The notes: generated by a model from the sequence alone, not told the origin. DNA of 31,278 nt from Gemmatimonadales bacterium (GCA_035709185.1 DASTEX010000321.1:1-31278); one strand, 5' to 3'. Shown: positions 140-28,452, counted from the stretch's first letter. A program made the numbers and translations.

Positions 140-292
140 CCGGTGCCGAGTGCCGGGTGCCGGGTGCCACGTGCGGTTCTGGGTTCTTCGTTCGGTGCCC
201 GTCTGATGTCGTGTGACAAGACCTCTGGGGGTGACCCAGTACCGGGCACCCGGAACCGCCCTGGGCACCAGGCACGGGGCACTTGGAACCGC
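140..292. repeat. Element A: inverted heptamer tandem arrays (CGGGTGC-type left arm, GCACCCG-type right arm) with 40-nt spacer
   Basis: Left 140-198: ccggtgc cgagtgc cgggtgc cgggtgc cacgtgc ggttc tgggttc ttcgttc ggtgc. Right 239-292: gtaccgg gcacccg gaacc gccctgg gcaccag gcacggg gcacttg gaaccgc. Confidence 0.9.
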
Positions 293-321
293 TTGTAGCA
301 TCCCCGAACCGCCGTTATATT
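293..321 (+). promoter_or_regulatory. Putative sigma70 promoter of rpsO-pnp
   Basis: TTGTAG (293-298) - 17 nt - TATATT (316-321). Confidence 0.65.
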
Positions 322-368
322 GCCATGCTACAACAAATTACGATAACGCAGAGCGCAGGTAGCCAACG

Positions 369-629
369 ATGAGTCTCGACAAGCAGAGCGTGATCACCAA
401 GTACCGTGTGGCCGACAACGATACCGGTTCGGCCAGGGTACAGGTGGCGCTCCTGACTGAGCGGATCAACTCGCTCACCGACCACTTCCGAACCCATCCC
501 AAAGATCATCACGGACGGCGGGGCCTGCTCAAGATGGTGGGGGCGCGACGTCGCCTGCTCACCTACCTGAAGCGAACGGATCTGCAGACCTATCGTTCGC
601 TCATCGCCGATCTCGGCCTCAGGCACTAG
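369..629 (+). CDS. rpsO: 30S ribosomal protein S15
   Basis: 86 aa; [50 protein letters not shown] is the S15 signature. Confidence 0.98.
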
Positions 630-646
630 TCCGGAGTCGATCTCCC

Positions 647-680
647 AGGGGCGTCCCACCAGGCACAGTGAGACGCCCCT
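647..680 (+). promoter_or_regulatory. Stem-loop in the rpsO-pnp intercistronic region
   Basis: aggggcgtc-c-cac / caggcaca loop / gtg-a-gacgcccct; no U-tract follows. Confidence 0.5.
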
Positions 681-715
681 TGTCGCTATTGGTGTGTCCA
701 AGGATGGTAATTGAC

Positions 716-2797
716 GTGCATCGCATCGAAACCGATTTCGCGGGGCGGAAACTCACGATTGAAACCGGACGCATGGCCAAGCAGGCGGCCGGCTCGGCGG
801 TCATCCGGTTCGGCGATACCATGGTCCTCGCGGCCGTCACGGTGTCCCCCAACATCTCCGCTCTCCCGTTCTTCCCCCTCACCGTCGAGTACAAGGAAAA
901 GACCTACGCCGCGGGCAAGATCCCCGGCGGGTTCATCAAGCGCGAGGGCCGGCCTTCGGAAAAGGAAATCCTGGCCGGCCGGCTGATCGACCGGACCATC
1001 CGCCCGCTGTTCCCCGACGGCTTCCGCAACGAGGTGCAGGTCTTCGTGACGGTCATTTCGGCCGACCAGGAGAATGACGCCGACGTGCTGGGCCTGGTGG
1101 CGGCCTCGGTGGCGCTGAACCTGTCTCCGGTTCCGTGGCAGGGCCCGATCGCGGGAGTCCGGGTGGGCCGGGTGGACGGGCACTGGATCCTCAATCCCAC
1201 CTTCCAGCAGCTGGAGGTCTCTACCGTCGACCTGGTGGTGAGCGGCACGGCCGATTCCATCGTGATGGTGGAGGGCGGCGCCTTGGAGATCTCCGAGCCG
1301 GAAATGCTCGAGGCGCTCAAGGTGGCCCAGCACGGCATCCGCGACCTCATCGCGTTCGTCGGCCGCCTGCCGGCCGAAGCGGCCCATCGCAAGATGAGCT
1401 TCCAGCCGCCGGCCCAGGACCAGGAGCTGATCCGGAAGGTCCGCGAGCTGGCGGAGGAGCGGATGGCGCAGGCGATCAACGCGGGCGACAAGCATGCCCG
1501 CGCCACCGGCATCGCCGAGGTCAAGACCGCGGCGCTCGCCGCCCTGGCCGAGAGCTACCTGGAGCGGGTGCGCGAGGTCGGGGCCGAGCTGGACGACATC
1601 GAGTACCGGGTGATGCGCCGGCAGGTACTGGAAAAGGGCGAGCGGGTGGACGGCCGCGACCTCGATACCGTCCGGCCCATCAGCGTGGAAGTGGGGCTCC
1701 TGCCCCGGGTCCACGGGTCGGCCCTCTTCACCCGGGGCGAAACCCAGGCGCTCGTAGCGGTGACGTTAGGCACCAGCGATGACGAGCAGCGGATCGACAG
1801 CATCGACTTCGCGGGCGAGACCACCAAGTCGTTCATGCTGCATTACAACTTCCCGCCCTACTCCACCGGGGAAGTCAAGCCGATGCGCGGCACCAGCCGC
1901 CGGGAGATCGGGCACGGGGCGCTGGCGGAACGGGCCCTCCAGGCGCTGCTCCCCGCCTTCGAGAGCTTCCCCTACACCCTGCGGGTGGTATCGGAAATCC
2001 TCGAGTCCAACGGCTCGTCCTCCATGGCCACCGTCTGTGGCGGCTCCTTGGCGCTGATGGACGCGGGGGTGCCGATGAAGGCGCCCTGCGCCGGCGTCGC
2101 CATGGGCCTGGTCAAGGAAGGCTCCCGGACCGCCATCCTGACCGACATCCTCGGGGCCGAGGATCACCTGGGCGACATGGACTTCAAGGTGGCGGGGACC
2201 GAGCAGGGGATCACCTCCATCCAGATGGACATCAAGATCACCGGGCTCGACCTGGGCATTCTGGGCCAGGCGCTGGAGAAGGCGCGCAAGGCGCGGCTCC
2301 ACGTGCTGCGCGAGATGGGCAAGGTGCTGAACCGTCCCCGCCAGGACCTCTCGCCTTTCGCGCCGCGGATCATCACCATCCAGATCAAGCCGGAGAAGAT
2401 CGGCGACGTGATCGGTCCCAAGGGCAAGACCATCCGCGGGATCCAGGACGCCACCGGCGCCAAGATCTCGGTGGAGGACAGCGGCCTGGTGACCATCGCG
2501 GCGGTGGGGGGCGAAGCGGGCCAGAAGGCCCGGGACATGGTCGCCGCCATCGTGGCCGAGCCCGAAGTGGGCCGGACCTACGAGGGACAGGTCAAGAGCG
2601 TGGTGCCCTTCGGCGCGTTCGTCGAGATCATTCCGGGCGTCGAGGGCCTGCTGCACATCAGCGAGCTGCAGCACGGACGGACCGAGAAGACCGAGGACGT
2701 GGTGAAGGTGGGCGATACCGTCACGGTGAAGCTGCTTGAGGTAGACGAGCGCGGCCGGATGCGGCTCTCCCGCAAGGCCCTGCTGCCCAAGGCCTGA
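716..2797 (+). CDS. pnp: Polyribonucleotide nucleotidyltransferase (PNPase)
   Basis: GKIPGGFIKREGRPSE, FMLHYNFPPYSTGE, RREIGHGALAERA, ESNGSSSMA and EDHLGDMDFKVAG motifs, then KH and S1 domains. Start placed at GTG 716 (MHRIET) after AAGGA; ATG 704 is an alternative. Confidence 0.97.
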   Translation: MHRIETDFAGRKLTIETGRMAKQAAGSAVIRFGDTMVLAAVTVSPNISALPFFPLTVEYKEKTYAAGKIPGGFIKREGRPSEKEILAGRLIDRTIRPLFPDGFRNEVQVFVTVISADQENDADVLGLVAASVALNLSPVPWQGPIAGVRVGRVDGHWILNPTFQQLEVSTVDLVVSGTADSIVMVEGGALEISEPEMLEALKVAQHGIRDLIAFVGRLPAEAAHRKMSFQPPAQDQELIRKVRELAEERMAQAINAGDKHARATGIAEVKTAALAALAESYLERVREVGAELDDIEYRVMRRQVLEKGERVDGRDLDTVRPISVEVGLLPRVHGSALFTRGETQALVAVTLGTSDDEQRIDSIDFAGETTKSFMLHYNFPPYSTGEVKPMRGTSRREIGHGALAERALQALLPAFESFPYTLRVVSEILESNGSSSMATVCGGSLALMDAGVPMKAPCAGVAMGLVKEGSRTAILTDILGAEDHLGDMDFKVAGTEQGITSIQMDIKITGLDLGILGQALEKARKARLHVLREMGKVLNRPRQDLSPFAPRIITIQIKPEKIGDVIGPKGKTIRGIQDATGAKISVEDSGLVTIAAVGGEAGQKARDMVAAIVAEPEVGRTYEGQVKSVVPFGAFVEIIPGVEGLLHISELQHGRTEKTEDVVKVGDTVTVKLLEVDERGRMRLSRKALLPKA

Positions 2798-2801
2798 GCG
2801 G

Positions 2802-4118
2802 GTGCGGATCGAGCAGCTGGACGAGCGGCTCGTCCGGTACGTCGCGCCTAACGGCCTTCGGGTCCTGACGGAGTCGCTGCCGGGCGTGCGCTCGGCCGCG
2901 GTGGGCCTGTGGGTCCGGTCGGCCTCGGTCCACGAGCCGGCCCACCTGATGGGCATTTCCCACCTGCTCGAGCACATGGTCTTCAAGGGCACCGAGCGGC
3001 GCACGCCCCGCGAGATCGCCCTCGAGCTGGAGAGCCGGGGCGGGTCGCTCGATGCGTTCACCTCCCGCGATCACACCGCCTTCCAGGCCCACGTGCTCGA
3101 TGCCGACCTGCCGGTGGCCATCGAGGTGATCACCGACCTGGTGCGGCGGCCCCTGCTCCGCCAGAGCGACCTGGAGCTGGAGCGCAATGTCATCCTGGAA
3201 GAAATCAGCAGTGTGCACGACGCGCCCGACGATGTGGTCTTCGAGCTGCACGCCCGCGCGCTGTGGCCCTCCCATCCCTACGGCTATTCCATCCTGGGAA
3301 CGGCCGAGACGGTGCAATCGATCACGGTCGACGACCTGCGGGCCACCCATGCCGCGGGCTACTATCCCGGCAACTGCATCATCACCGCGGCGGGCAATCT
3401 CGCCCCCGACCAACTGCTGACGGTGCTGGAGCGCGAAGGCTGGTTCGAGGGCTCCGAGGCGACGCCGCCCCTGCCGCCGGTGCCGTCCACGCCGGCCGCG
3501 CGGGGTGAACGGGTCATGGAGCCGCGCGACAGCCAGCAGTGCCACCTGGTCATCGGCACCGACACGGTGTCCAGCCGGGACCCCCGCCGCTACGGCTTCG
3601 CCCTGATCTCCACCGTCCTGGGCGGCGGCATGTCCAGCCGGCTGTTCCAGCAGATCCGGGAAGAGCTCGGGCTGGCCTACGCGGTGTTCTCCTTCCAGCA
3701 GTTCTACCAGACCACGGGAGTGACCGGGGTCTACCTCGGCACCCAGGCCGAGACGGCCGCCCAGGCCACCGATCTGGTGCTGGGGGAGTGCGGGCGGCTG
3801 GCCCGGGAAGGGCTGCCGGCCGAAGACCTGGTTTCCGCCAAGCAGCAGCTCAAGGGTCAGATCATGCTGTCGCTCGAGAGCCCCATGAGCCGGATGCACC
3901 GGCTGGGCGGCGTGGAGCTGGCCCGCGACCGCTACCGCCGGCTCGACGAAATCCTGGCGGAGATCGACGCCGTGACGCCGGACGAGGTCCGGGCCATCGG
4001 GGAGGAGTTCTTCCACCCCGACCGGCAGACCATCGTGCACCTGGGCCCCTTCGGTCCCCGCATCGTGCGGGACGAGCCCCGGGCGGCCGCGCGCAGCCTG
4101 TCATCCCGCGACGCCTGA
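2802..4118 (+). CDS. M16 family (pitrilysin/MPP-like) zinc peptidase
   Basis: Inverted zinc motif HLLEH (GISHLLEHMVFKGT), GGSLDAFTS, GGGMSSRLFQQIRE; usual position after pnp. Confidence 0.93.
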   Translation: MRIEQLDERLVRYVAPNGLRVLTESLPGVRSAAVGLWVRSASVHEPAHLMGISHLLEHMVFKGTERRTPREIALELESRGGSLDAFTSRDHTAFQAHVLDADLPVAIEVITDLVRRPLLRQSDLELERNVILEEISSVHDAPDDVVFELHARALWPSHPYGYSILGTAETVQSITVDDLRATHAAGYYPGNCIITAAGNLAPDQLLTVLEREGWFEGSEATPPLPPVPSTPAARGERVMEPRDSQQCHLVIGTDTVSSRDPRRYGFALISTVLGGGMSSRLFQQIREELGLAYAVFSFQQFYQTTGVTGVYLGTQAETAAQATDLVLGECGRLAREGLPAEDLVSAKQQLKGQIMLSLESPMSRMHRLGGVELARDRYRRLDEILAEIDAVTPDEVRAIGEEFFHPDRQTIVHLGPFGPRIVRDEPRAAARSLSSRDA

Positions 4119-4145
4119 ACCACGAATCGCGACTTCGAGGAGAAC

Positions 4146-5261
4146 ATGATCATCGGTGTCCCCAGGGAGATCAAAACCAACGAGAACCGGGTTGCGGTGG
4201 TCCCCGCGGGCGTGGAGCTGCTGGTAGGCGCGGGTCATACCGTCTACGTCGAAGCCGGCGCCGGACTCGGCAGCGGGTTCCCCGATGAGGCGTACCAGAA
4301 GGCCGGCGCGCGGCTGCTCACCCCGGCCGAAGAGGTGTGGAGCAAGGCCGAGATGATCGTGAAGGTGAAGGAACCCATCGCAGCGGAATGGCCCCGGATG
4401 CGGCCGGGGCAGGTGATCTACACCTACTTCCATTTCGCGGCGTCGGAAGAGCTGACCCGGGCGGTGCTCGATTCCGGCGCGGTGGCGGTGGCCTACGAGA
4501 CGGTGCAGCTGCCTAACGGCGAGCTCCCGCTGCTCACGCCCATGTCGGAAGTGGCCGGCCGCATGGCGGTGCAGGAAGGCGCCAAGTACCTGGAGAAGGT
4601 CCACGGGGGCCGGGGCGTGCTGCTGGGCGGGGTGCCCGGGGTGGCGCCGGCCGAGGTGGTCATCCTCGGGGGCGGCGTGGTCGGCATCAACTCGGCCAAG
4701 ATCGCGGCCGGCATGGGCGCCCACGTCACCATCCTCGATATCTCGCTCGACCGGCTGCGCTACCTCGACGACGTGCTGCCCACCAACGTCGATACGGTCT
4801 ACAGCAACCGGTACAATATCCTGGACGCGGTATCGCGGGCCGATCTCGTGGTCGGCGCGGTCCTGCTCACGGGCGCCAAGGCGCCCCACCTGATTCTGCG
4901 GGACGATCTCAAGCTGATGAAGCCGGGCGCCGTGGTGGTGGACGTGGCGGTGGACCAGGGCGGCTGCGTCGAAACCATCAAACCCACCACCCACGAGAAC
5001 CCCACCTATTTCGTGGACGGCATTCTCCATTACGCGGTCGCCAACATGCCGGGCGGCGTCCCGCGGACCTCCACCCTGGCCCTCACCAACGCCACCATGC
5101 CCTACGGTCTCAAGCTGGCCCGCTACGGCTGGAAGGAAGCCTGCCGGAAGGACCCTGCGCTCCGGCTGGGGCTCAACGTGGTCGAGGGACGCACGGTGTA
5201 CCCCGGCGTGGCGGAGGCCTTCGGGCTGCCGCTCACCAGCGTCGACGCCGTACTGCAGTGA
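4146..5261 (+). CDS. ald: Alanine dehydrogenase
   Basis: [47 protein letters not shown]; SD GAGGAG upstream. Confidence 0.96.
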
Positions 5262-5285
5262 GGGGTGAGGTGTGAGGCGTGAGGT
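5258..5285 (+). repeat. Element F: single heptamer tandem array (GTGAGGN)x4
   Basis: gtgaggg gtgaggt gtgaggc gtgaggt; contains the ald stop (5259-5261) and the in-frame dut GTG (5272). No inverted partner seen nearby. Confidence 0.85.
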
Positions 5286-5730
5286 TGGCGCTCTGCCCGA
5301 CATCATGGTGCGGCGGCTCCCCCATGGCGAGGGGCTGCCCCTCCCGGCGCGCGCCACCGCCGGCTCGGCCGGGTATGACATCGCCAGCGCCGAGGACGCG
5401 ATGGTGGGCCCGCTGGAGCGGCGGCTGGTCCGGACCGGCTTTGCCTTTGCCATCCCGCCCGGTTATGAAATGCAGGTGCGGCCGCGCTCCGGCCTGGCGC
5501 TCCGCCAGGGGCTCACGCTCCCGAACACGCCGGCCACCATCGACAGTGATTACCGGGGCGAGCTGATGATCGCGGTGGTGAACCTGGGCGCGGTCCCGGT
5601 CGAGGTCACCCGCGGGATGCGGATTGCGCAACTGATCATTGCGAAGGTCGAGAGTCCCGCGATGGTCGAAGTGGGGGAACTCCCCGAGACCCCACGGGGG
5701 GACGGCGGGTTCGGCAGTACCGGGACCTGA
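5272..5730 (+). CDS. dut: dUTP diphosphatase (trimeric dUTPase)
   Basis: [23 protein letters not shown] and [10 protein letters not shown] motifs. Exact start uncertain. Confidence 0.96.
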
Positions 5731-5829
5731 GACTGGCTCCGGTCTCGCGTCTGGCAAACGACTTGCTCTGAACCGGCTCTGCAGCCTCTCGCCGGTTCGG
5801 TGAGGACCCGAGAGACTGCTTAACATGGC

Positions 5830-5858
5830 TTGTCGAAGTGCAAGCCTCATTTTAACTT
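5830..5858 (+). promoter_or_regulatory. Putative sigma70 promoter of the mre/mrd operon
   Basis: TTGTCG (5830-5835) - 17 nt - TAACTT (5853-5858), in an AT-richer patch before mreB. Confidence 0.55.
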
Positions 5859-5886
5859 AGGCGCCAGCCTACCCCTAAGAAACTAA

Positions 5887-6921
5887 ATGAAGTTTCCCTT
5901 CAGCCTGGACCGCCTCCTGCCCGCCAACGAGATCGCGGTCGATCTGGGCACGGCAAATACGCTCATCTATGTAAAAGGCGAGGGAATCGTCCTCAACGAG
6001 CCGTCGGTGGTGGCCATCGAACGCTCGACCGGGAAGATCAAGGGCATCGGCCTGGAAGCCAAACGGATGCTGGGCCGCACCCCCGAAGGCATCATCGCGG
6101 TTCGGCCGCTCAAGGACGGCGTCATCGCCGACTTCGACGTGACCGAGAAGATGCTGCGCTACTTCCTCAAGACGATCATCGACAAGCACCTCTTCCGGGT
6201 GAAGCCCAAGGTGATCGTCTGCGTGCCGTCGGGCATCACCGAGGTGGAGCGCCGCGCGGTGCGCGACTCGGCGGAAACCGCCGGGGCCAAGGAAGTCCTG
6301 ATGGTGGCCGAGCCGATGGCGGCGGCAATCGGGGTGGGCCTGCCGGTCGAGACGCCCACCGGCAACATGGTGATCGACATCGGCGGCGGCACCACCGAGA
6401 TCGCGGTCATCGCGCTCTCCGGCATCGTCTGCGACACCTCGATCCGGACCGGGGGCGACGAGCTCGACCAGGCCATCGTGCAGTTCATGCGGAAGAACTA
6501 CAACCTCCTGGTGGGAGAACCCACCGCGGAGGCCATCAAGATCAAGATCGGTTCCGCCTGGCCGGTGGGCGAAGAGCGCGAGATGGAAGTGAAAGGCCGG
6601 GACCTGGTGTCCGGCATCCCGAAAACGGTCCGGGTGCACTCGGCCGAGATTCGCGAGGCGGTCCAGGAGCCGATCCAGCAGGTGGTGGATGCGGTCCGGC
6701 GGGCGCTGGAAATCACCCCGCCCGAACTCTCGAGCGATATCGTGGACCGCGGCATCGTCATGACCGGCGGTGGCGCGCTCATTCGCGGGCTCGACGTCCT
6801 GCTGGCGCAGGAAACCGGCCTGCCGATCCACGTAGACGAAGACCCGCTCACCTGTGTCGTGCGCGGTACCGGCCGCATTCTCGACGAATTCGACAAGTAC
6901 CGCAGCGTCCTGACGACCTGA
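5887..6921 (+). CDS. mreB: Rod shape-determining protein MreB
   Basis: IAVDLGTANT, RPLKDGVIADF, AEPMAAAIG, DIGGGTTE, GIVMTGGGAL. Confidence 0.98.
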   Translation: MKFPFSLDRLLPANEIAVDLGTANTLIYVKGEGIVLNEPSVVAIERSTGKIKGIGLEAKRMLGRTPEGIIAVRPLKDGVIADFDVTEKMLRYFLKTIIDKHLFRVKPKVIVCVPSGITEVERRAVRDSAETAGAKEVLMVAEPMAAAIGVGLPVETPTGNMVIDIGGGTTEIAVIALSGIVCDTSIRTGGDELDQAIVQFMRKNYNLLVGEPTAEAIKIKIGSAWPVGEEREMEVKGRDLVSGIPKTVRVHSAEIREAVQEPIQQVVDAVRRALEITPPELSSDIVDRGIVMTGGGALIRGLDVLLAQETGLPIHVDEDPLTCVVRGTGRILDEFDKYRSVLTT

Positions 6922-6922
6922 C

Positions 6923-11353: not shown

Positions 11354-11356
11354 ACA

Positions 11357-11490
11357 AAAGTGCCGAGTGCCTGGGTGCCGGGTGCCGGGTTCGGTACCGG
11401 GTACCGGGTACTTGGTACGGGTACTCCGGTGGCCAAGACCCAGGTACCAGGCACGGCACGGGGTACGGGGAACCCGGCACCGGGCACTCT
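11357..11490. repeat. Element B: inverted heptamer tandem arrays with 19-nt spacer
   Basis: Left 11357-11424: aaagtgc cgagtgc ctgggtgc cgggtgc cgggttc ggtac cgggtac cgggtac ttggtac gggtac. Right 11444-11490: gtaccag gcacg gcacggg gtacggg gaacccg gcaccgg gcactct. Confidence 0.9.
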
Positions 11491-11595
11491 AACCTGTTCG
11501 TATCCATAGCCTTGCGTCCCACCATCTGGCGCGGGTCGGGTCCGGCCCCCAAATTGGGTGTGATGTAGATTCGACTCCACACTTACGCTATCCTT

Positions 11596-12478
<883 letters not shown>

Positions 12479-12480
<2 letters not shown>

Positions 12481-12568
12481 TTCAGCGATTTAGCGATTTA
12501 GCGATTTAGCGATTACCAACCCTTGACGGTCAACCCAATCGCTGAATCGCCAGATCGTAAAATCGTGA
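12479..12568. repeat. Element E: inverted octamer tandem arrays with 22-nt spacer
   Basis: Left 12479-12514: gattcagc gatttagc gatttagc gatttagc gatt. Right 12537-12568: aatcgctg aatcgcca gatcgtaa aatcgtga (reverse complement type). Fills the whole accD-folC gap. Confidence 0.9.
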
Positions 12569-12569
12569 A

Positions 12570-13805
12570 ATGAACCTGTCCTACACCGAAGCGCTTCAGT
12601 TCCTCTACCCCCGAACCCAGAACTATAAATTCGGCCTGGAGCGCACCGAGCGTCTCCTCGACGAGCTGGGCCGTCCCGACCGGGTTTACCCGGTGATCCA
12701 CGTCGGGGGCACCAACGGCAAGGGCAGCGTGGCGACGCTCATGGCCGAAACCCTGCGCACCGCCGGGTGGCGCACCGGGCTCTACACCTCGCCTCACCTG
12801 GTCTCGTTCCGGGAGCGGTACCTGGTGGACGGGGCGCCGATCAGCGAGGGCGCGGCCGCGATGTGGATTCAGCGGCTCCGGCCGCTCACGGAGGAGATCG
12901 ACGCCACCTTCTTCGAGGTGGGAACCGCGCTGGCCTTCGCCGACTTTGCCGCGCGCGGGGTGGAGATCGCCGTCATCGAAGTCGGCCTGGGGGGCCGGCT
13001 CGACAGCACCAACGTGGTCCGCCCGGTGCTGTCGGTCATCACCAAGATCGAGCTGGATCACCAGAAGTATCTCGGAGACACGCTGGAGCAGATCGCGGCC
13101 GAGAAAGCCGGGATTGCCAAACCGGGCGCGCCGTTGGTAGTGGGGGAAACCCGGCCGGCGCTGATCGAGGTACTGAGGCGGGAAGGGCAGCGGGCCATCG
13201 GGGCGCTCGATCCCGCCGCTACGCTCGACTTCCGGCTGGTTCCGGGCGACGAGTTGTACCAGGGTCCCCTGCGCCTGGTCGGAAGTCACCAGCGGCGCAA
13301 CGCCGCCGTGGCCCGGGCCGCGCTGCACGCGCTGCCGGATCGGTGGAAGCCTCCCGAGCCAGCGATCGAGCGCGCCTTTGCCCGGGCCACCGTCCCGGGC
13401 CGGCTGGATCGCCGGGGCCGCTGGATCTTCGACGTGGCGCACAACCCGGACGGCGTGCGGGCGCTGGTCCGGACGCTGAAGGAGCTGAATCCGCCGGGTC
13501 CGGTCGTGGCGCTGGTATCGATCCTGGGCGACAAGGCGTGGCCGGAAATGCTGGTAACCCTGGATCAGGCCATCGATCACGGCATCCTCACCATCGCGCC
13601 CTCGGCCGACACGCGGCGATGGGACCTGGAATGGCTGCGGCGCTGGCTGCGCGAGCCCGACCGTCCGCCGGCGCGGGCCCGATGGCAGCTGATTCCCGAT
13701 TTCCACCAGGCCCTGCGTGAGGCGCAGGCTGAGGCCGGGACGATTCTCGTGACCGGCAGCTTTCACACGGTGGGCGATGTGATGGGGGCGGTGGGGATAC
13801 TCTAG
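12570..13805 (+). CDS. folC: Bifunctional folylpolyglutamate synthase/dihydrofolate synthase
   Basis: HVGGTNGKGS, YTSPHL, TFFE, EVGLGGRLDSTN, DVAHNPDG, VTGSFHTVG. Confidence 0.95.
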   Translation: MNLSYTEALQFLYPRTQNYKFGLERTERLLDELGRPDRVYPVIHVGGTNGKGSVATLMAETLRTAGWRTGLYTSPHLVSFRERYLVDGAPISEGAAAMWIQRLRPLTEEIDATFFEVGTALAFADFAARGVEIAVIEVGLGGRLDSTNVVRPVLSVITKIELDHQKYLGDTLEQIAAEKAGIAKPGAPLVVGETRPALIEVLRREGQRAIGALDPAATLDFRLVPGDELYQGPLRLVGSHQRRNAAVARAALHALPDRWKPPEPAIERAFARATVPGRLDRRGRWIFDVAHNPDGVRALVRTLKELNPPGPVVALVSILGDKAWPEMLVTLDQAIDHGILTIAPSADTRRWDLEWLRRWLREPDRPPARARWQLIPDFHQALREAQAEAGTILVTGSFHTVGDVMGAVGIL

Positions 13806-13971
13806 TGCCGCGTGCCGGGTGCCGGGTGCCGAGTGCGGTTCAGGGTGCGGGGTGCACGGTGCACACCTCCACCCAGGCAGTCGCGGCACTGAACCGGGCA
13901 CACCTGAACGGCACTCGGTACCGGGCCCGCTGAACGGCACCCGGTACGCGGCACCCGGCACGCTGAGCCCG
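13802..13971. repeat. Element C: inverted heptamer tandem arrays with 23-nt spacer
   Basis: Left 13802-13862: ctagtgc cgcgtgc cgggtgc cgggtgc cgagtgc ggttc agggtgc ggggtgc acggtgc. Right 13886-13971: gcact gaaccgg gcacacct gaacg gcactcg gtaccgg gcccgct gaacg gcacccg gtacgcg gcacccg gcacgct gagcccg. Confidence 0.9.
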
Positions 13972-13996
13972 TCCGTCGGATTAAACCTGGGTCCCA

Positions 13997-14005
13997 TGTT
14001 AGATT
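13997..14005 (+). promoter_or_regulatory. Extended -10 element of hisS, probably leaderless
   Basis: TG-T-TAGATT, then 6 nt, then ATG 14012; no SD. Confidence 0.5.
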
Positions 14006-14011
14006 CCCCCG

Positions 14012-18071: not shown

Positions 18072-18072
18072 C

Positions 18073-19635: not shown

Positions 19636-19741
19636 GACGGCTGGGCTAAGTCGAGTCCTGTGTTAGCATTGGCGCACTTCTTGCTCGGCTGACTTGTATC
19701 TTTTTGCAGCCCTTCCTTCAGCGGAGCCAAGAACTCCTGCA

Positions 19742-21085: not shown

Positions 21086-21094
21086 GGAGAAATC

Positions 21095-21967: not shown

Positions 21968-21968
21968 T

Positions 21969-22421: not shown

Positions 22422-22427
22422 GGCCCA

Positions 22428-22507
22428 AACGTAACCCGCGGCGCGGACTACGGTCAAAAATCGGTCAACCTTGTCGTGTTGCCGCGCCCCGTATGGCTAA
22501 CTAATTT
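22428..22507. promoter_or_regulatory. Divergent promoter pair for PTS IIA (-) and dusB (+)
   Basis: Minus: TTGACC (22457-22452) - 18 nt - TACGTT (22433-22428). Plus: TTGCCG (22479-22484) - 17 nt - TAATTT (22502-22507). Each -10 is 6 nt before its ATG. Confidence 0.6.
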
Positions 22508-22513
22508 TGGGAT

Positions 22514-23497
22514 ATGAGGTTACCCTACGCCCCCGCGCGGAGCACGCCGCTCATCCTGGCCCCCATGGCCGGGGTGTCGGAAGCGCCCTTCCGGCAGATC
22601 TGCCGTCGGATGGGAGCGGACATCCTCATGACCGAGTTCCTGGCGGCCGAAGCCATCCGCCGCGGCATCCGGAAGACGCTGGAAGGGTGCGAATTCGAAG
22701 AAATCGAGCGCCCGATCGGTATCCAGATTTACGGGGCCGCCCCCGAGGCGATGGGGCGCGCTGCCGCGATCGTGAGCGAGGCGTATCAGCCCGAGTTCAT
22801 CGACATCAACTTCGGGTGCCCGGTAAAGAAGGTGGTGCAGCGCAACGGCGGTTCGGGCTGCCTCCGCGATCTGGATCTGGTCGAGCGGATCATCCGGGCG
22901 GTCGTAAGCGCCACGCCGGTGCCGGTAACGGTGAAGACCCGGAGCGGGTGGAGCGAGGAGTCCCGCGATCCGGTGGGCATCGCGCGGCGCATGCAGGACG
23001 CGGGGGCCCGCGCGTTCACCCTGCACGCCCGGACCCGCACCCAGATGTTCTCGGGCAAGGCCAGCTGGGACGAGATCGCGCGGGTGGTGGAGGCGCTCGA
23101 CATTCCGGTGATCGGCAACGGCGACATCCAGACGGCGGAAGACGCGGTCCGCATGCGGGATCATACCGGCTGCGCCGCGATCATGATTGGCCGCGGGTCG
23201 TTCGGCAATCCGTGGCTGTTCCGGGACGCGCGGGCGCTGCTCGACGGCGCCGTCCGGGCGGCGCCCCCCACGCCGGCCGAACGGTTCGTGCTGGCGCTGG
23301 AACATGCCCAGCTGGCGCTCCGCCTCCAGGGTGATTCGCGCTCGACCGTGATCGAGTTCCGCAAACACCTGGGGTGGTACACCCGGGGACTGCCCGGAGC
23401 ATCGGCCCTGCGCGAGCGGCTCTTCCAGGTCGATACCATGGCCGAGGCGGCCGGGATCTTTCATCAGTATCTGGAGCCGGTCGCCAGCGCCGCGTGA
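22514..23497 (+). CDS. dusB: tRNA-dihydrouridine synthase (DusB-like)
   Basis: LAPMAGVS, IDINFGCP, GGSGCL, VTVKTRSGW, LHARTR, IGNGDI, MIGRG. Confidence 0.93.
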   Translation: MRLPYAPARSTPLILAPMAGVSEAPFRQICRRMGADILMTEFLAAEAIRRGIRKTLEGCEFEEIERPIGIQIYGAAPEAMGRAAAIVSEAYQPEFIDINFGCPVKKVVQRNGGSGCLRDLDLVERIIRAVVSATPVPVTVKTRSGWSEESRDPVGIARRMQDAGARAFTLHARTRTQMFSGKASWDEIARVVEALDIPVIGNGDIQTAEDAVRMRDHTGCAAIMIGRGSFGNPWLFRDARALLDGAVRAAPPTPAERFVLALEHAQLALRLQGDSRSTVIEFRKHLGWYTRGLPGASALRERLFQVDTMAEAAGIFHQYLEPVASAA

Positions 23498-24252
23498 ACC
23501 GGACTGCACTGGAGGTCCTGCTGGCCGACGTGGCGGCCGGGCGAATCAGCCCGGGTGACGCGCTCGCCCGGCTGCGTCATTTCCCCGACGAAGACCTCGG
23601 TTTCGCGACCCTGGACCATCAGCGCACCATCCGGCAGGGTCAGCCCGAGGTCGTGTTCTGTGAAGGAAAATCGGTGGACCAGGTGGTGCGGATCTGCGAC
23701 CGGCTGATGGCGGCCTCGGGCGGGTTTCTCGCCACCCGGGCGGGCCCGGCGCAGGCCGAAGCGGTGCTGGACCGAATCCCCGACGCCCGCTGGGACCCGT
23801 TAGGCAGGACCCTCTGGCGGCCGGTCGACCCCTCCGCGGCGCCAGGAGGTTCGCTGGTCCTGGTCGTGACCGCGGGCACTGGTGATCTCCCGGTCGCGGC
23901 CGAGGCCGCGGTCACAGCCGGCGCCTGGGGAGCCCGGGTGGAGCAGCTGAACGACGTCGGCGTGGCAGGACTGCACCGCCTGTTGACCCGGAACGCCCTG
24001 CTGCGCACGGCCGGCGCCATCATCGTCGTCGCCGGCATGGAGGGGGCGCTGCCGAGCGTCGTCGGAGGACTGGTGGATGTGCCGGTGATCGCGGTGCCCA
24101 CCAGCGTGGGATACGGAGCCTCGTTCGGCGGCCTGGCCGCGCTCCTCGGGATGCTGAACTCGTGCGCGGCCGGGGTGACTGTGGTCAACATCGACAACGG
24201 GTTCGGAGCCGGCGTGGCGGCCGCACGCATAACGACCCGGGAGGGCACGTGA
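23494..24252 (+). CDS. larB: Nickel-pincer cofactor biosynthesis protein LarB (AIR carboxylase/PurE-like)
   Basis: [64 protein letters not shown]; GTG 23494 overlaps the dusB stop. Confidence 0.9.
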
Positions 24253-25196
24253 TCCGGACTATCCTCACCGCCGAACGTCACGGCGTCACCTGGATCGACG
24301 TCACCGCCCCCACTCCCGAAGAACTGCACCAGATCGCGCATCGCCACGGCCTCCACCCTACGGTGGTGGAGGACTGCCTGGACCCGGCCCATCTGCCCAA
24401 GTACGAGAAGCAGGAAGAGGCCACCTTCATCATTCTGCGGGTATGGGGCGAGCGCCCGGAACGCACCGGTGAGGCGGTCCAGGACGTCAGCCGGAAGATC
24501 GCGCTGTTCACCCGGGGCGACCTGCTGCTCACGATTCACCGGGCCGACCTCGCCCTCATCCAGCGGGTGGAGAAGGAGTGGACCCTCCGGAAGTACGATG
24601 GCGGCGAGCGCGCCATGGTGCCGGCCATCTTCGCGGACATCGCGACCGAGGCCTTCAGCTCCTACGATCAGCCGCTGGACGATGCGGAAGAGACGCTGAT
24701 GGCCTTCGAACGCGCGTTGTTCGATCCCAAGTCCCGGCCGCCGGCCCTGTTCGCCATTCACCAGCTCAAGGGGAGGCTGGGACTGATCCGGCGGATGCTC
24801 TGGCTCACCTCCGGCGTCATCCTGAAATCGGGTGGAGGCCAGGAGCGCACCACCCCGCTGCACCAGGACCTGCGCGAGACCGCCGACAGCTATCTCTTCT
24901 ACACCGATCAGCTGCTGGACCAGACCCATGACCTGCTCACGATCCACCTGGCCGTCGCGTCCCACCGGACCAACGAAGTGATGCGCGTGCTCACGGTGTT
25001 TTCCGCGTTCTTCCTGCCACTGACGTTCATCGTCGGGCTCTACGGCATGAACTTCGTGCACATGCCGGAGCTGGGCTGGCGGCTGGGCTATCCCATGGTT
25101 CTGGCCGTGATGCTCGCGGTCAGCCTGGCCATCTTCACCTGGTTCCGCCGGCGCGGCTGGCTCCGCCGGGTGGGTGGGGAGGAAGAGACGTTGTGA
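24249..25196 (+). CDS. corA: CorA family Mg2+/Co2+ transporter
   Basis: [24 protein letters not shown] (GMN motif), MPEL; GTG 24249. Confidence 0.92.
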
Positions 25197-26602
25197 CGCT
25201 CGACTGGATCCTGGCCCTGCTGGGTGTGGCCTTCGGAGCGGTGCTCGGCTGGGTCGCGGCCCGGACCGTGGGCCCCAGGCTGCTGTCCTCGGCCCCAGCC
25301 ACCGCGCGTCCCCAGTCCCGTCCCGCAGTGATGAGCGATCCACCGGAGCTGGCCTGGATTGCCCGGGCGAATGCGGCCGCCGGCGTCTGGCTCCGGCGGG
25401 GGGTCCGGAGCAACGTCGTCTCGGTGACCCTGGGGGCCGTACCCGGCAGTCTGCAGCAGGCGATCGCAGCCCGGCTGGCCACCCTGGCTTCGGCCGGAGG
25501 GCGGACCGAGGTGGAACGGCTCGAGGACGGTGTCACGGTGTACGTCGCGTCCGAGGATGTGCAGCTCGCGATGCTGCTGGCACCGAAGCAGCCGTTCGCC
25601 CAGGCCCAGCGGGACCTCGAGGGGCTGCTGGGCGTGCTGCGGACCCGGGAGCTGCTGGAGATCGCCTCCCAGAAGCCGGCCGGGTCCGGCGAGACGATCA
25701 ACAGCGTGGCGATCCGGCTGGCCATGGAAATCGAGCGGTTCCTCGATGCCGAGGCGGCCGTGGTGGTCCGCCAGCCCCGCGGTCCTCAGGTCATCGGCAC
25801 ATCGGTGCGGGCCGATCCCCACCTTCACCGGGTGGTGGCGCTGCCCGGGTCGGCCGTCGACGAGGCGGTGCGGGGTGAGGGGGACGGAATGGTGATGGCC
25901 TATGACCCGTTAGGCGTTCTCCCGCCGGACCGGCGCCACCGGGAGCGGCGAGCCTTCATCCTCCCGCTGGTGAACGCCGGCACCAAGCTGGGCGCCGTGG
26001 TGCTCTGGCCCCCCAGCGGCGTCGAGCCCACCGGGCCGATCAAGGCGGAGCTGGATCGGATGATCCAGCGGGCCGCGCCCCGGCTGGAAGACGCCATCCA
26101 GCGCATGGAGCTGCAGGAACGGGCCATTCGCGATCCGCTCACCGGGCTGCGCAACCGGCGGGGGATGACCGAGGCCATGGGGGCCATCGAAGCCCAGCGG
26201 GGGGCGGTGGTGGTCTTCGACCTCGACCACTTCAAGGCTCTCAACGACAATCTGGGTCACCCCGCGGGCGACTCGGCGCTGCAGACGGTGGCGGGGATCC
26301 TGGAGGAAATCGTGCGGGACGGCGATACGGCCGCCCGGGTGGGCGGCGAGGAATTCGCCGTCTGGATCCGGGACGCAACCATGGAGGACGGTATGGCGGT
26401 GGCCGAACGGATCCGGTCGCGGATCGAGCACGTGAACTGGCAGTGGCAGGGGCGACGCTGGCCCATGACCGCCAGCTTTGGGGTGGCGTCGTGGCCCGAG
26501 ACCACCCGTCACCGGGACAACCTGCTGGCCCAGGCGGACGCGGCCCTCTACCGGGCGAAGGAGAAGGGGAGGAATCGGGTGGAGAGAGCAAGTAAGGACT
26601 AA
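25193..26602 (+). CDS. Membrane-anchored diguanylate cyclase (GGDEF)
   Basis: N-terminal TM helix; [26 protein letters not shown], RxxD I-site (RDGD) and GGEEF. Confidence 0.92.
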
Positions 26603-26629
26603 GGACTAAGGACTTAGGACTTAGCTCTT
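26595..26629 (+). repeat. Element G left arm: (AGGACTW)x4 plus one degenerate unit
   Basis: aggacta aggacta aggactt aggactt agctctt; contains the DGC stop (26600-26602) and the four-helix-gene stop (26623-26621). Confidence 0.92.
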
Positions 26630-27005
26630 CCCCTTGAGGTCTGTTCTCGGATCGACGCTTCGGCGCAGCCCAGCCACAACCCGTGAGGTCTCGCAGCAAA
26701 GCTCAACCAGTTCGCGGTAGGTTCGCTGGTCAACGAGGCCGGCATCGAAGCTGTGGTGCACCAGGCTCCTCACCTCGGCGAGAGAGCCTTTGGCAATGGA
26801 CAGGAACTGGTGGAACTCCCGCCTTCCGCCCCGCTCGAACCCCTCGGCAATATTGGACATCACTGAAAAGCCGGCTGAGTAGCTGGGCCTTCAGTTTGAA
26901 GTGGGGCCGAAACGGCTGGGTTGATGTAACCCTGGCCACGGCGCTCGCGAGCCACCGAGCCTTCTGCCAGGCAATCAGATCTTCGAAGACGCGGACAGGA
27001 GCCAC
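26621..27005 (-). pseudogene. Four-helix-bundle protein (23S rRNA intervening-sequence protein family, PF05635/TIGR02436-like), frameshifted near 26873
   Basis: Frame 1 from GTG 27005: FEDLIAWQKAR...KAQLLS. The +1 frame continues GFSVMSNIAEGFERGGRREFHQFLSIAKGSLAEVRS. These are the family hallmarks F+DL.AWQKA and SNIAEGF. Family assignment is by motif recognition. Confidence 0.88.
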
Positions 27006-27092
27006 CGCTCAAATACTGCGAGAAAGTGCCGAGCCGCGGTAACCGGAAAGCCGCCTCCGGCACCAATTAAGCCCCTGGCTCTCGAGCCACCC

Positions 27093-27113
27093 AAGTCCTA
27101 AGTCCTAAGTCCT
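27093..27113 (-). repeat. Element G right arm: (AAGTCCT)x3, reverse complement of the left arm
   Basis: aagtcct aagtcct aagtcct followed by degenerate tgtcttg. Confidence 0.92.
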
Positions 27114-27142
27114 TGTCTTGGAATGCGGTAGGAGTTTAGATT
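27113..27142 (+). promoter_or_regulatory. Putative sigma70 promoter of ssrA
   Basis: TTGTCT (27113-27118) - 18 nt - TAGATT (27137-27142). Confidence 0.5.
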
Positions 27143-27159
27143 TTACGTCACTTAGGAAG

Positions 27160-27519
27160 GGGGGCGACCGGTTTCGACGGGTCAGAGGAGCTTGTGGTTG
27201 CGCGTCCAGGTCCAGGTTCCTGGTTAAACCGCTTGGAAACACACAACTGCCAACACCAACTTGGCACTGGCTGCGTAAGCTGAGCTTAGCTCGCTGAAGC
27301 ACCACCGGTGAACGAAGCCCGCCTGGGGCGTCGCCGCCGGGTCGAAAATCCGGGCTGGTCCGACGCGATCTTCCGGCGCGAAGGACGAGATCTCAGGAAG
27401 TCGGTGGTGGGAAGTCTGGCCGGTCGACGGCCCACTGCTCAGGCAAGAAGATCGGCCTACGCGCGTAGATACTGCGAGGGATGCTGATTCGGACCAGGGT
27501 TCGATTCCCTGCGCCTCCA
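27160..27519 (+). ncRNA. ssrA: tmRNA, tag peptide (A)ANTNLALAA
   Basis: 5' GGGGGCG pairs with 3' CGCCTCC-A (G3.U wobble); D-loop-like GTTTCGAC; T-arm CAGGGTTCGATTCCCTG; tag ORF 27249-27278 gcc aac acc aac ttg gca ctg gct gcg taa. Confidence 0.97.
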
Positions 27520-27524
27520 TCAGG

Positions 27525-27560
27525 AATACAAAGGGCCCGGCAACCGGGCCCTTTGTATTT
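27525..27560. terminator. Bidirectional intrinsic terminator after ssrA
   Basis: AATACAAAGGGCCCGG-CAA-CCGGGCCCTTTGTATT, a perfect 16-bp stem with T-rich tails on both strands. Confidence 0.9.
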
Positions 27561-27680
27561 CCCATCTGGTCCGGACCTGGCCCTGCATATGCGACGACGG
27601 AAGCGGAAGTGCTCTACCCGGCGGCGATCCTGGTCGGGGATTTTATCCGGGCCCGGCGGTCGGCCAGATAAGTCGGCTCC

Positions 27681-28244
27681 TTACTTCGACTCCTCCAGCG
27701 GAAGCGACACGCGAGTGTGCTCCCACTCGAGAATCAGTTTGCCCCAGCCGCCCTTGGCTTCCGAGCGAATGGTGAACTGCTCGATGTGCTCCTCCAGCTT
27801 CCAGGCCTTGACCTTCCCCCGGCCGACTTCCTGCTTCTTGATCGCCTCGTTGTAGGAACCTTCATCGCCCCACTGTTCCACCGAGCGGTTGATCACGATC
27901 TCCCATTCGGTGGGTCCCGGTATGGTGTAGAGCGAATACACGCCCTGGTCCAGCTCTACCCCGGCGATGACGACCGGGCCACTGGCGTGGATCATGGTGG
28001 GCTCGTTGGCGCCGGTCCGCCACAGCTTGCCGAAGGGGACATTGTGACCGCCGAGCATGGTGCGCCCGCGCGAGGAGGGCCGGCCATAACAGATCTTCAC
28101 CCGCGTGCTGCCGACCGTGAACGCCACCGAATCGAGCGGACTCGCCCGCTTGGCCAGCGAAGCCTGGCTGGCGCTGGTGATGCAGGCGGGGTCCTGGCGC
28201 GCGGGCAGGCCCAGCAACACGGCGGTAAACAGTTCCAGAATCAT
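27681..28244 (-). CDS. DUF2911 domain protein (probably exported)
   Basis: ASPLDSV, ICYGRPSSRGR, VPFGKLWRTGANEPT, YSLYTIPG, LEWEHTRV; hydrophobic N-terminus. Confidence 0.85.
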   Translation of the reverse strand: MILELFTAVLLGLPARQDPACITSASQASLAKRASPLDSVAFTVGSTRVKICYGRPSSRGRTMLGGHNVPFGKLWRTGANEPTMIHASGPVVIAGVELDQGVYSLYTIPGPTEWEIVINRSVEQWGDEGSYNEAIKKQEVGRGKVKAWKLEEHIEQFTIRSEAKGGWGKLILEWEHTRVSLPLEESK

Positions 28245-28278
28245 AAGAGTTTCTTACTCCGATGCAGAACGAAACAAT

Positions 28279-28452
28279 CCTGCCGATCGTTCCAAGTCCA
28301 CTGTTCCAGGTTCCGGGTTCCGTTCATCGTGCCTCGTTCGTGGTGTCCGACGATAGTGTGCATACGCCTTGTGAAAGGCCGGGGCACGCGGCACCAAGCA
28401 CCCGGAACCGCACGCGGAAACCCGGCACTCGGAACCCGGAACGATCGGCAGG
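28279..28452. repeat. Element D: inverted heptamer tandem arrays with 44-nt spacer and perfect 15-bp terminal inverted repeat
   Basis: Left: atcgttc caagtcc actgttc caggttc cgggttc cgttc atcgtgc ctcgttc. Right: gcacgcg gcaccaa gcacccg gaacc gcacgcg gaaacccg gcactcg gaacccg gaacgat. Termini cctgccgatcgttcc (28279-28293) / ggaacgatcggcagg (28438-28452). Confidence 0.9.

Follow-up and report, generated by a model that had tools for sequence, protein, structure and literature searches.

Intervening sequences and other described relatives

Some 23S rRNA genes carry intervening sequences (IVSs), and in Coxiella burnetii, Leptospira, Xanthomonas and Brucella those with an open reading frame encode a protein of the S23p family, PF05635 (PMC4990558). 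The Coxiella IVS has tandem GACAGAT heptamers in its 5' arm, their number varies from strain to strain, and RNase III cuts at its first repeat (PMC4990558). The Xanthomonas PF05635 protein is a homopentameric toroid (PMC4990558), and Avd, the accessory protein of diversity-generating retroelements, is a homologous pentameric four-helix bundle that binds nucleic acid (PMC10053308).

Other systems share single traits with the elements described below. REPINs, as reportedly set out by Bertels and Rainey in 2011, consist of REP sequences that have their own Y1 transposase, the RAYT. The Foldback (FB) transposons of Drosophila have long inverted ends made of short tandem repeats with a higher-order periodicity, and the trp RNA-binding attenuation protein (TRAP) is an 11-subunit ring that sits on 11 (G/U)AG repeats. 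PF05635 proteins are four-helix bundles, and no catalytic domain is known in them.

The window analysed here, a stretch of 31,278 nucleotides from a Gemmatimonadales bacterium, contains four palindromic elements, A to D, all of them between protein-coding genes and none carrying a gene. They are gene-less copies of a young, discrete palindromic family that is limited to this species and its nearest congener. In the account that we prefer, with a probability of roughly 55%, this family descends from a master element bearing a PF05635 gene, and its register is both inherited and held by a class-wide constraint, probably a protein ring that reads five cores. What is new here is the fixed register itself, its retention in the sister species, and seven matches between a gene and a repeat family.

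The resemblance to 23S rRNA IVSs is close in several respects. A PF05635 gene lies in the loop of an inverted-repeat stem (28 bp in Coxiella), the 5' arm contains tandem heptamers, and the open reading frame is prone to decay, as in a copy of another family at 26621-27005 of the window. The long-stem inverted repeats are present, and the PF05635 reading frame is found in the family's copy on contig C374; insertion into a 23S rRNA helix was not found for A to D, and Rfam returned only tmRNA for the window. Unlike IVSs, the present elements sit between protein-coding genes rather than in rRNA helices, and there are tens of gene-less copies for each gene-bearing copy. One genome contains many families side by side, their units unrelated, and arm length is fixed at 33 nt (4x7+5). 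Such intergenic siting, gene-less copies, coexisting families or fixed arms do not appear in the papers that we found. The stem of an IVS is an RNase III substrate, whereas for the elements here cleavage is proposed by analogy.

REPIN/RAYT systems are similar in that a gene is enclosed by short intergenic palindromic repeats of one family, with several such pairs per genome and species-specific families. They differ in the flanked gene, here a four-helix bundle without a known catalytic motif instead of a Y1 transposase, and in the arms, which here are tandem 7- to 10-mers as opposed to a single palindrome of 20-40 nt. FB transposons likewise occur with or without a coding loop, but they are eukaryotic, far larger and encode other proteins, and homology is not implied.

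Four elements in the window

Each of the eight arms has five GT[G/T/A]C cores at a spacing of 7 nt and a sixth core after 5 nt. None of the elements is assigned a strand. Element A (143..289) is a hairpin of the GTGCCGG family upstream of rpsO. Its left arm (143-175, 33 nt) has cores starting at 143, 150, 157, 164 and 171, followed by 176, and its right arm (257-289, also 33 nt) has, going inward, cores at 286, 279, 272, 265 and 258, the last being a degenerate GCCC, followed by 253. A second 5-nt step leads from 190 to 195.

Element B (11360..11487) lies between the rodA stop codon (11353) and accD, and its inner units are GTACCGG. The left arm (11360-11393) is 34 nt long owing to one 1-nt insertion, with cores at 11360, 11367, 11375, 11382 and 11389 and then 11394; the right arm (11455-11487, 33 nt) has cores at 11484, 11477, 11470, 11463 and 11456 and then 11451. 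At this site a GTGCCGG element is absent from all seven congeners. Two soil runs hold a variant of B in which 7 nt, GGTACCG, are inserted behind 11392.

Element C (13805..13968) overlaps folC by the final base of its stop codon and is located upstream of hisS. The cores of its left arm (13805-13837) run from 13805 to 13833 in 7-nt steps and then reach 13838, and those of its right arm (13936-13968) start at 13965 (a degenerate GAGC, the outermost core), 13958, 13951, 13944 and 13937 and then 13932. The right half shows two extra 5-nt steps, 13906 to 13911 and 13886 to 13891. The orthologous spacer is about 40 nt long and empty in four congeners; in the nearest congener it holds a small hairpin with GTAC cores.

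Element D (28279..28452) occupies the space between a DUF2911 gene and a pyruvate phosphate dikinase gene. Both arms (28289-28321 and 28410-28442) consist of GTTCC units, as in the family of the sister species, and the element is extended by 10 nt on each side. Cores start at 28289, 28297, 28303, 28310 and 28317, then 28322, on the left, and at 28439, 28432, 28425, 28417 (GAAA) and 28410, then 28405, on the right. The nearest congener has no such element at the orthologous site, and D is found in contigs from two independent soil runs.

An initial annotation of the window had placed a single 5-nt unit after five heptamers in all eight arms. Its coordinates for these pentamers were exact on rechecking, and the 5-nt step to a sixth core is indeed there in 8/8 arms. 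The step is not unique within an element, since A has one more and the right half of C two more, and instead of only two 1-nt insertions the outer five units show three shifts of +1 and one of -1 (+1 in the left arm of B, +1 and -1 in the left arm of D, and +1 in its right arm).

Arm geometry across the genome

The pattern of five cores and a 5-nt step has 62 matches in the genome and none when the pattern is reversed as a control. Only 3 of the 62 arms have a sixth core in the 7-nt register; about 90-95% of arms have exactly five, and in 65 of the 96 outer arms that contain a 5-nt step, this step is preceded by exactly five cores. At its outer end an arm starts abruptly: positions -12 to -1 carry 0.0-0.2 bits of information, position 0 about 2 bits. 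Within the units the core GTNCC is kept while the 2-nt spacer varies. The natural parse of an arm is (GTGCCGG)x4 followed by a spacer-less core, GTGC[C/G]. As the fifth unit lacks the 2-nt spacer, the arm is 33 nt long, and the 5-nt unit is simply its inner end: counted from the true outer boundary it is the fifth unit and not the sixth, and the proposed protein footprint of about 40 nt becomes one of 33 nt.

Inside the elements the 5-nt step repeats every 19, 26 or 33 nt, with three units (27 cases) or two units (23 cases) between successive steps, and TRF reports periods of 26, 33 and 19 nt on C374. The single 5-nt unit of the initial annotation is therefore incomplete. These inner steps may have arisen by tandem duplication of modules of 19, 26 and 33 nt that span the junction between arm and interior.

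Many contigs of this metagenome-assembled genome terminate in these repeats, which are short and prone to slippage. It might be suspected that no true elements exist and that simple sequence has expanded or the assembly is at fault. This is refuted by the sharp boundaries and fixed register, by the empty reversed-pattern control, and by the recovery of identical elements in contigs of independent soil metagenomes.

Folding, siting and strand

All four hairpins fold better than expected as RNA (z of -5.7 for A, -4.2 for B, -7.3 for C and -5.8 for D). The outer end of an element lies a median of 2 nt from the adjacent stop codon; elements are over-represented between convergent genes, under-represented between divergent genes. 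These observations would suit another account, in which arms are selected solely as a stem of about three turns (33 bp), as an RNase III substrate or a 3' stabiliser, and the repeats are a by-product of slippage: long hairpins fold throughout, the spacers in which they lie are transcribed, the classical IVS stem of 28 bp is cut by RNase III at its first heptamer (PMC4990558), and arm lengths across families (31-42 nt) vary less than a fixed number of units would predict at any unit length. As the whole explanation it is nevertheless unlikely. The spacer positions of paired arms show no compensation, leaving a stem mismatch about every 7 nt, and a stem can do without tandem periodicity and without a conserved core. 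Pairing also has no need of a strand rule, yet the 5' arm is the G-rich one in 276 of the 297 informative elements of the genome, on both strands, and the increase of arm length with unit length (31, 32, 36 and 42.5 nt) is not what a ruler of pure length would predict.

PF05635 genes and their repeat families

One GTGCCGG element, on contigs C374 and C580, carries a gene, which encodes a PF05635 protein (23S rRNA IVS protein/Avd-like) and not a transposase. The gene lies at C374:2892-3269, matches the profile with 83.6 bits and has a product of 125 aa. The right end of this copy we infer, because the overlap of C374 and C580 is 96% identical and not 100%. The initial annotation had speculated about five units and a pentameric four-helix-bundle ring, the protein in question being the PF05635 product of the cassette at 26593..27113 (see below), and since a gene-bearing GTGCCGG element exists, that link is stronger than its author could know. 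The protein of this copy can now be tested directly as a reader of the repeat.

The arrangement is general in this genome. All seven PF05635 genes carry tandem arrays, each with a unit that matches one dispersed family; all seven gene-bearing copies are paired in this way with dispersed copies that lack the gene. For the large families TGCAGAG, the 10-mer and the 9-mer GGGTCGGAA, no gene turned up in this genome, which is only 77% complete. Inverted arrays stand on both sides of the PF05635 gene at 19 of 29 loci from the same taxonomic order and at 38 of 80 loci from many phyla, and array density is 7 times higher within 250 nt of such a gene. The arms at PF05635 genes of many phyla have a median length of 31 nt (4.4 copies, mostly heptamers). 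Among 60 gene-bearing cassettes from other phyla, 52 have a G-rich upstream arm.

The family has traits of MITEs, with 33-nt inverted arms (62 in all) and elements of 114-352 nt, and it differs from them in its lack of target-site duplications and in a gene-bearing copy without a transposase. None of 23 complete elements has a direct repeat of 2-8 nt at its junctions, and four soil metagenomes contained no empty site or excision joint. It is very improbable that these are REP/REPIN- or MITE-type elements moved by a conventional RAYT or DDE transposase encoded elsewhere, with PF05635 as a passenger. They are multi-copy, intergenic and palindromic with terminal inverted repeats, and a gene within its own repeat family does recall the RAYT/REPIN layout, but the absent duplications speak against it, as does the lack of matches to the Y1 transposase (PF01797) and reverse transcriptase (PF00078) profiles in this 77% complete assembly. 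Moreover, the flanked gene is PF05635 in 7/7 cases here and in cassettes of many phyla, which is more constant than one would expect of a passenger. The assembly yielded no transposase, RAYT or reverse transcriptase that could make the copies, and PF05635 cannot yet account for the copying because no catalytic domain is known in it. A diversity-generating retroelement is likewise not indicated, with no PF00078 match and no template/variable repeat pair in the assembly, and Avd genes are not known from between inverted heptamer arrays.

Related species and unrelated families

A strict form of the arm pattern has 45 matches in this genome and none across 40 relatives, as the common descent proposed in the initial annotation would have it. 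The nearest congener has 50 arms with the identical register and the unit GTTCCGG; a sixth core is present in 5 of them. In six other congeners there are no such arms. Two unrelated heptamer families, AGGACTT x4 + AGTCC and ATTGACG x4 + ATTGC, also have arms of 33 nt (4x7+5). Conservation of geometry beyond sequence, as had been supposed, is supported, in that the register outlives the change from GTGCCGG to GTTCCGG and recurs in families of other units. A further heptamer family has TGCAGAG x5, and families of 8-, 9- and 10-mers have four units per arm, with arms of 32, 36 and about 42 nt. Neither arm length nor unit count is strictly constant across families.

The register could be a frozen accident, the sequence of one master that was recently multiplied, with nothing that measures five units. 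The GTGCCGG family is indeed young and species-specific, and its arms are about 80% identical. Two arms from a single element agree at 29.9 of 37 positions, barely more than the 29.3 for arms from separate elements (p ~0.05); the 7-nt insertion in B shows that unit number can change in nature. Still, we consider this reading rather unlikely. Almost all 50 arms of the sister species have exchanged GTGCC for GTTCC and yet keep five cores and the 5-nt step, the 33-nt arm recurs in the unrelated families, arms beside PF05635 genes of many phyla cluster near 31 nt, and the core is conserved where the spacer is not.

A proposed ring that reads five cores

On the account that we prefer, the register would be inherited from the gene-bearing master and additionally held by a class-wide constraint, since the sister species kept it through a change of unit and unrelated families show it as well. 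The likeliest source of this constraint would be a ring of the cognate PF05635 protein that reads one arm as a single strand through its five G-rich cores; a 2-nt spacer between cores, with none needed after the last, gives 4x7+5 nt. The strand rule of the G-rich 5' arm speaks for single-strand reading. Base pairing between the two arms of a transcript would create a stem of about 30 bp, open to cleavage by RNase III as in 23S rRNA IVSs. The RNA runs that we located contained at most 15% of the sampled words.

As to the ring, the PDB homologues 2GSC and 2RLD have five chains per entry each, and the predicted self-association score was 0.58 against 0.01 for the best control, with at most 4 copies folded; in a benchmark, 21 of 30 solved homo-pairs and 0 of 23 single chains scored at least 0.58. 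The analogy to TRAP, drawn in the initial annotation, would pair a ring-shaped homo-oligomer with short tandem cores separated by variable spacers of 2-3 nt, and reading of this type with a spacer-free last core would explain the truncated fifth unit. The folds are unrelated, however, binding in the present system is a proposal, and the unit sequence here differs with each paralogue. A strict rule of one unit per subunit is plausible yet weakened, because five cores are the number in heptamer families, whereas the 8-, 9- and 10-mer families have four units.

More tentatively, and with distinctly less confidence than in the account as a whole, each PF05635 pentamer may be a sequence-specific reader of single strands, with five G-rich cores set around the ring, one per subunit, which would give the 33-nt arm. 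Each paralogue would have evolved a 5-nt code of its own and would control or mobilise its own tens of hairpins at gene ends. If so, bacteria would possess a large natural collection of ring proteins, each matched to a short-repeat target, and a single explanation would cover both the unexplained heptamer repeats and the IVS protein family, whose function has been open for 30 years.

Other repeats in the window

A cassette of a different family lies at 26593..27113 on the minus strand, with arms of TAAGGAC x4 and AAGTCCT x3 around a broken PF05635 gene. This gene is truncated or frameshifted and matches only profile positions 38-104 (26675-26875). Contigs from two soil runs cross the cassette with zero differences, which rules out an assembly error as the cause of the break; in the nearest congener, the orthologous place is occupied by this cassette with its gene intact. 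A lone arm of GTGAGGN x4 (5262..5285, plus strand) follows immediately after the stop codon of the alanine dehydrogenase gene, with no partner arm. Finally, element E (12479..12572, unstranded), between accD and folC, has the architecture of A to D with an octamer unit, GATTTAGC x4.5 and its inverse, and a fold z of -7.3. A related element is found at the equivalent site in the nearest congener, and there are more copies in both genomes.

Arm register and the 33-nt arm

The initial annotation had proposed a fixed register for the eight arms (terminal inverted-repeat halves) of four gene-less hairpins of the GTGCCGG family, elements A (143-289), B (11360-11487), C (13805-13968) and D (28279-28452). 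With cores scored as GT[G/T/A]C in left arms and G[C/A/T]AC in right arms, this register is indeed present: five cores follow each other at 7-nt spacing from the outer end, the sixth comes after only 5 nt (a 5-step), and every pentamer position proved exact on re-reading the sequence. Four outer cores are degenerate, namely GCCC in A right, GAGC in C right, GTCC in D left and GAAA in D right. Two details of the proposal have to be corrected. Only two 1-nt insertions had been counted, but the register is actually shifted four times: by +1 in the left arm of B, by +1 and again by -1 in the left arm of D, and by +1 in the right arm of D. The 5-step, described as a single 5-nt unit per arm, is not unique either, with a second one in A and two more in the right half of C. 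Element D is built from GTTCC units, and the orthologous site in the nearest congener is without it; outside its arms there are 10-nt extensions that mirror each other. On another contig of the same genome (C697:9540-9740), a GTGCCGG element is nested within another inverted repeat, with mirrored flanks gcgctgaga / tctcagcgc and further mirroring beyond them.

The genome searched, to which the window belongs as contig C321, is a metagenome-assembled one of 3.8 Mb (67% GC, 731 contigs, 77% complete). A strict arm pattern finds 45 arms in it, 0 arms when the pattern is reversed, and 0 arms in 40 relatives, seven congeneric species included. When the genomic copies were collected by core spacing only (five cores plus the 5-step), as the initial annotation had suggested, 62 arms were found against 0 in the control, and a sixth core in register with the five occurs in only 3 of the 62. 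An independent chain-finding script gave 96 outer arms with a 5-step; exactly five cores precede the step in 65 of these, and every other core-count class has 7 or fewer. In arms aligned on the 5-step, positions -12 to -1 carry 0.0-0.2 bits of information and those from position 0 onward about 2 bits; this jump shows that the first core's G is where the element starts. Of each heptamer, GTNCC is kept and the final two bases are variable. The natural description of the arm is therefore 33 nt, made of four full heptamers and GTGC[C/G], a fifth unit cut to its core. Within the elements, 5-steps return after three heptamers (27 cases) or two (23 cases), and TRF reports periods of 26, 33 and 19 nt; together these fit a tandem duplication of modules spanning the junction between arm and interior.

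Geometry across species and families

The nearest congener has 75-83% nucleotide identity to this genome in housekeeping genes. It contains 50 arms in the same register, here with units GTTCCGG, then GTGCG, then GTGC, and a sixth core in only 5 of the 50, while the six other congeners have 0 such arms. Within the genome under study, TRF and a reverse-complement pairing script yielded 316 inverted tandem-array pairs, merging to 307 elements. The approximately 310 gene-less hairpins, roughly one per 12 kb, represent 15 or more families whose units are unrelated (examples are C159:151-265, C86:394-504, C717:1341-1412 and C62:684-784), and many contigs terminate in hairpin arrays. There are about 60 TGCAGAG, 40 AGGACTT and 40 ATTGACG elements, about 35 of a 10-mer and about 25 of a 9-mer.

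Read from the outer end, the arm consensus is five units (35 nt) in the TGCAGAG family, four units plus AGTCC (33 nt) in the AGGACTT family, four units plus ATTGC (33 nt) in the ATTGACG family, and about five units (about 35 nt) in the AGCTGTC and CCGTTAG families. The 8-mer families have four units (32 nt), the 9-mer family four (36 nt), and the 10-mer family four plus 2 nt (42 nt). Since the AGGACTT and ATTGACG arms also follow 4x7+5, this arm is not peculiar to the GTGCCGG family. Across unit sizes, however, both the number of units and the length of the arm vary somewhat. The earlier suggestion that geometry is kept beyond sequence is thus borne out: the register persists through the unit change in the sister species and recurs in unrelated families. 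We infer a class-wide constraint that sets the arm.

PF05635 genes and their arrays

The pentameric four-helix bundle to which the initial annotation referred is the product of a PF05635 (23S_rRNA_IVP) gene. Seven PF05635 genes are present in this genome, and tandemly repeated units of 7-9 nt lie no more than about 250 nt from each of them. The unit differs from gene to gene, and each matches one dispersed family; the matched units include an 8-mer (gene on C38) and a 9-mer (gene on C306). In the 77%-complete assembly no PF05635 gene was found for the TGCAGAG family, the 10-mer family and a large 9-mer family. The gene belonging to the GTGCCGG family (C374:2892-3269) is preceded by a left arm of this family, with a degenerate outer unit, five cores and the 5-step, and then a 26-nt module repeated 4.4 times. 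Downstream of the gene, G[C/A]AC cores run as far as the contig end, which a second contig, C580, overlaps by 81 nt at 96% identity; C580 contributes a right arm in which five cores and the 5-step are followed by two rounds of 7,7,7,5 spacing. With GTGCCGG-type arms around this gene, the gene-bearing element measures about 750 nt, and A-D are its relatives without a gene. The register is real, marks a 33-nt arm, and is common to a species-specific family that includes the PF05635-bearing copy.

This association extends beyond one species. PF05635 genes are present in 54 of 61 genomes of the same order, where reverse-complement arrays flank the gene on both sides at 19 of 29 loci. Among 80 loci from many phyla a strict criterion finds two-sided arrays at 38, and a further 32 carry one array or more. 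Array density is 3.4 per kb within 250 nt of a PF05635 gene vs 0.48 per kb from 500 nt outward; heptamers make up 150 of the 182 arrays close to the gene, and their median arm is 31 nt. Across 82 cassettes protein identity and unit similarity are weakly correlated (Spearman 0.09), and most sharing of units occurs at more than 70% protein identity, with the result that co-inheritance and recognition are not separated by this comparison.

Genomic placement and polarity

The window is ordinary housekeeping chromosome, with rpsO-pnp, mreBCD-pbp2-rodA, accD, folC, hisS, proS, lysA, guaA, corA, ssrA and a pyruvate phosphate dikinase gene. Rfam at gathering thresholds finds only the tmRNA in the window, and the elements are covered by no known RNA family. 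Four congeners have an empty spacer at the orthologous folC-hisS position, and the rodA-accD spacer of seven congeners is without a GTGCCGG element. In one congener (G001, L015:1214-1500) the rodA-accD spacer holds an inverted 9-mer array of about 200 nt, GGTCGGTTA (8-mer variants too) vs CAACCGCCC; the site of element B has there been colonised independently by an unrelated array. Element E (12479-12572, octamer GATTTAGC) has a related copy at the accD-folC site of the nearest congener, and further copies in both genomes, e.g. on C320 of this genome (183-261) and on five contigs of the congener. A partnerless arm, GTGAGGN x4, occupies 5262-5285, immediately past the stop codon of the alanine dehydrogenase gene, and runs into the start of the following ORF.

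Spacers were counted with a simple gene caller that reproduces the Pfam-supported genes of the window. Elements lie in 119 tandem, 78 convergent and 22 divergent spacers, with a background of 1662, 363 and 361, and convergent spacers are enriched (36% vs 15% of spacers). Measured from the outer end of the element, the median distance to an adjacent stop codon is 2 nt, with 47% of ends lying within -4 to +5 nt, and that to an adjacent start is 25 nt. Target-site duplications were seen in 0 of 23 elements. The two arms of one element resemble each other scarcely more than they resemble those of other copies, and compensatory change between them is essentially absent; pairing therefore comes from the shared consensus and not from compensation. 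Whichever strand is read 5' to 3', a G-rich arm comes first and a C-rich arm second; this rule holds for 276 of the 297 informative elements and for 20 of 22 families. Upstream arms are also G-rich in 52 of 60 gene-bearing cassettes from other phyla (loci L057-L136), and the opposite order hardly occurs. Such polarity suggests that a single strand is read.

A ring protein as a possible reader of the arm

The C374 protein (125 aa) matches PDB 2GSC (E = 5.5e-11), and the PF05635 family profile also matches PDB 2RLD; both entries have five chains. The Xanthomonas PF05635 protein has been cited as a homopentameric toroid (PMC4990558). For four copies of the C374 protein, side-by-side association is predicted with a score of 0.58 (best control 0.01), a value that 21 of 30 solved homo-pairs and none of 23 single chains attain. 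The favoured source of the arm constraint is a ring protein that would read five cores: the cognate PF05635 ring would take up five G-rich cores on one strand, and the last core would require no spacer, giving 4x7+5. The narrower model of one unit per subunit is given about one chance in four, because the 8-10-mer families have four-unit arms. In transcripts the paired arms may serve as an RNase III stem, by analogy with the Coxiella IVS, which has a 5' arm of tandem heptamers and is cut by RNase III at the first repeat (PMC4990558).

The closest described system is the ORF-bearing rRNA IVS, for which arm heptamers, variable heptamer number and a pentameric protein were already known (PMC4990558). 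In the literature no paper was found that connects dispersed families of gene-less repeats, or a fixed length of arm, with PF05635 genes, nor any description of several matched gene-and-family pairs in one genome, of a fixed 33-nt arm kept across a unit change, or of the G-rich 5' arm rule. In a figure legend, a large CRISPR survey includes "23S rRNA IVP" in its list of genes with a new link to CRISPR arrays or adaptation modules (PMC10910872). Speculatively, tandem arrays flanking PF05635 genes might contribute to that signal.

This genome is a clean test bed, with about 310 gene-less hairpins, seven families matched to a PF05635 gene of the same unit, and an arm geometry (five cores, 33 nt) that has persisted through a change of unit between sister species. 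To our knowledge, PF05635 (S23p) proteins have had no function since their discovery in rRNA intervening sequences, and the short tandem heptamer arrays of bacterial spacers have no known partner. A vague association becomes a quantitative prediction: the pentamer should prefer five cognate cores over three or four, and should not bind the unit of another family. For annotation, it is worth noting that hundreds of gene junctions have such an element adjoining a stop codon, and that metagenome assemblies break at these elements.

A decaying cassette and soil metagenomes

The window also contains a gene-bearing cassette of the AGGACTT family (26593-27113), in which a PF05635 gene lies on the - strand between TAAGGAC and AAGTCCT arms. 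Only profile positions 38-104 are matched and the N-terminal part is in another frame, which makes this a decaying copy. An ORF on the + strand (26683-27042) was discarded, as it has no match in Pfam or NCBIfam and the real gene, broken, is on the - strand. A version with an intact gene occupies the orthologous place in the nearest congener (G007:C450), adjoining a DUF2911 gene. The tmRNA gene (27160-27522, Rfam 144 bits) starts about 45 nt past the end of the right arm, which places the cassette within the ssrA promoter region.

Neither a Y1 transposase (RAYT) nor a reverse transcriptase was found in the 77%-complete assembly, and no convincing excision or empty-site joints were seen in four soil metagenomes. 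Joints from 26621 to 27094 were rejected, having only about 20 nt per side and deriving from other AGGACTT-family copies, and a joint from 13839 to 13920, with a side of 29 nt, is ambiguous. Elements B and D and the gene-bearing cassette are unchanged in contigs from these four metagenomes, which come from four different studies, and the soil contigs carry exactly the broken PF05635 form. Two independent soil runs (X1 and X9) have an extra GGTACCG (7 nt) exactly at the 5-step of the left arm of B, at 11392, and this insertion is a natural polymorphism in unit number.
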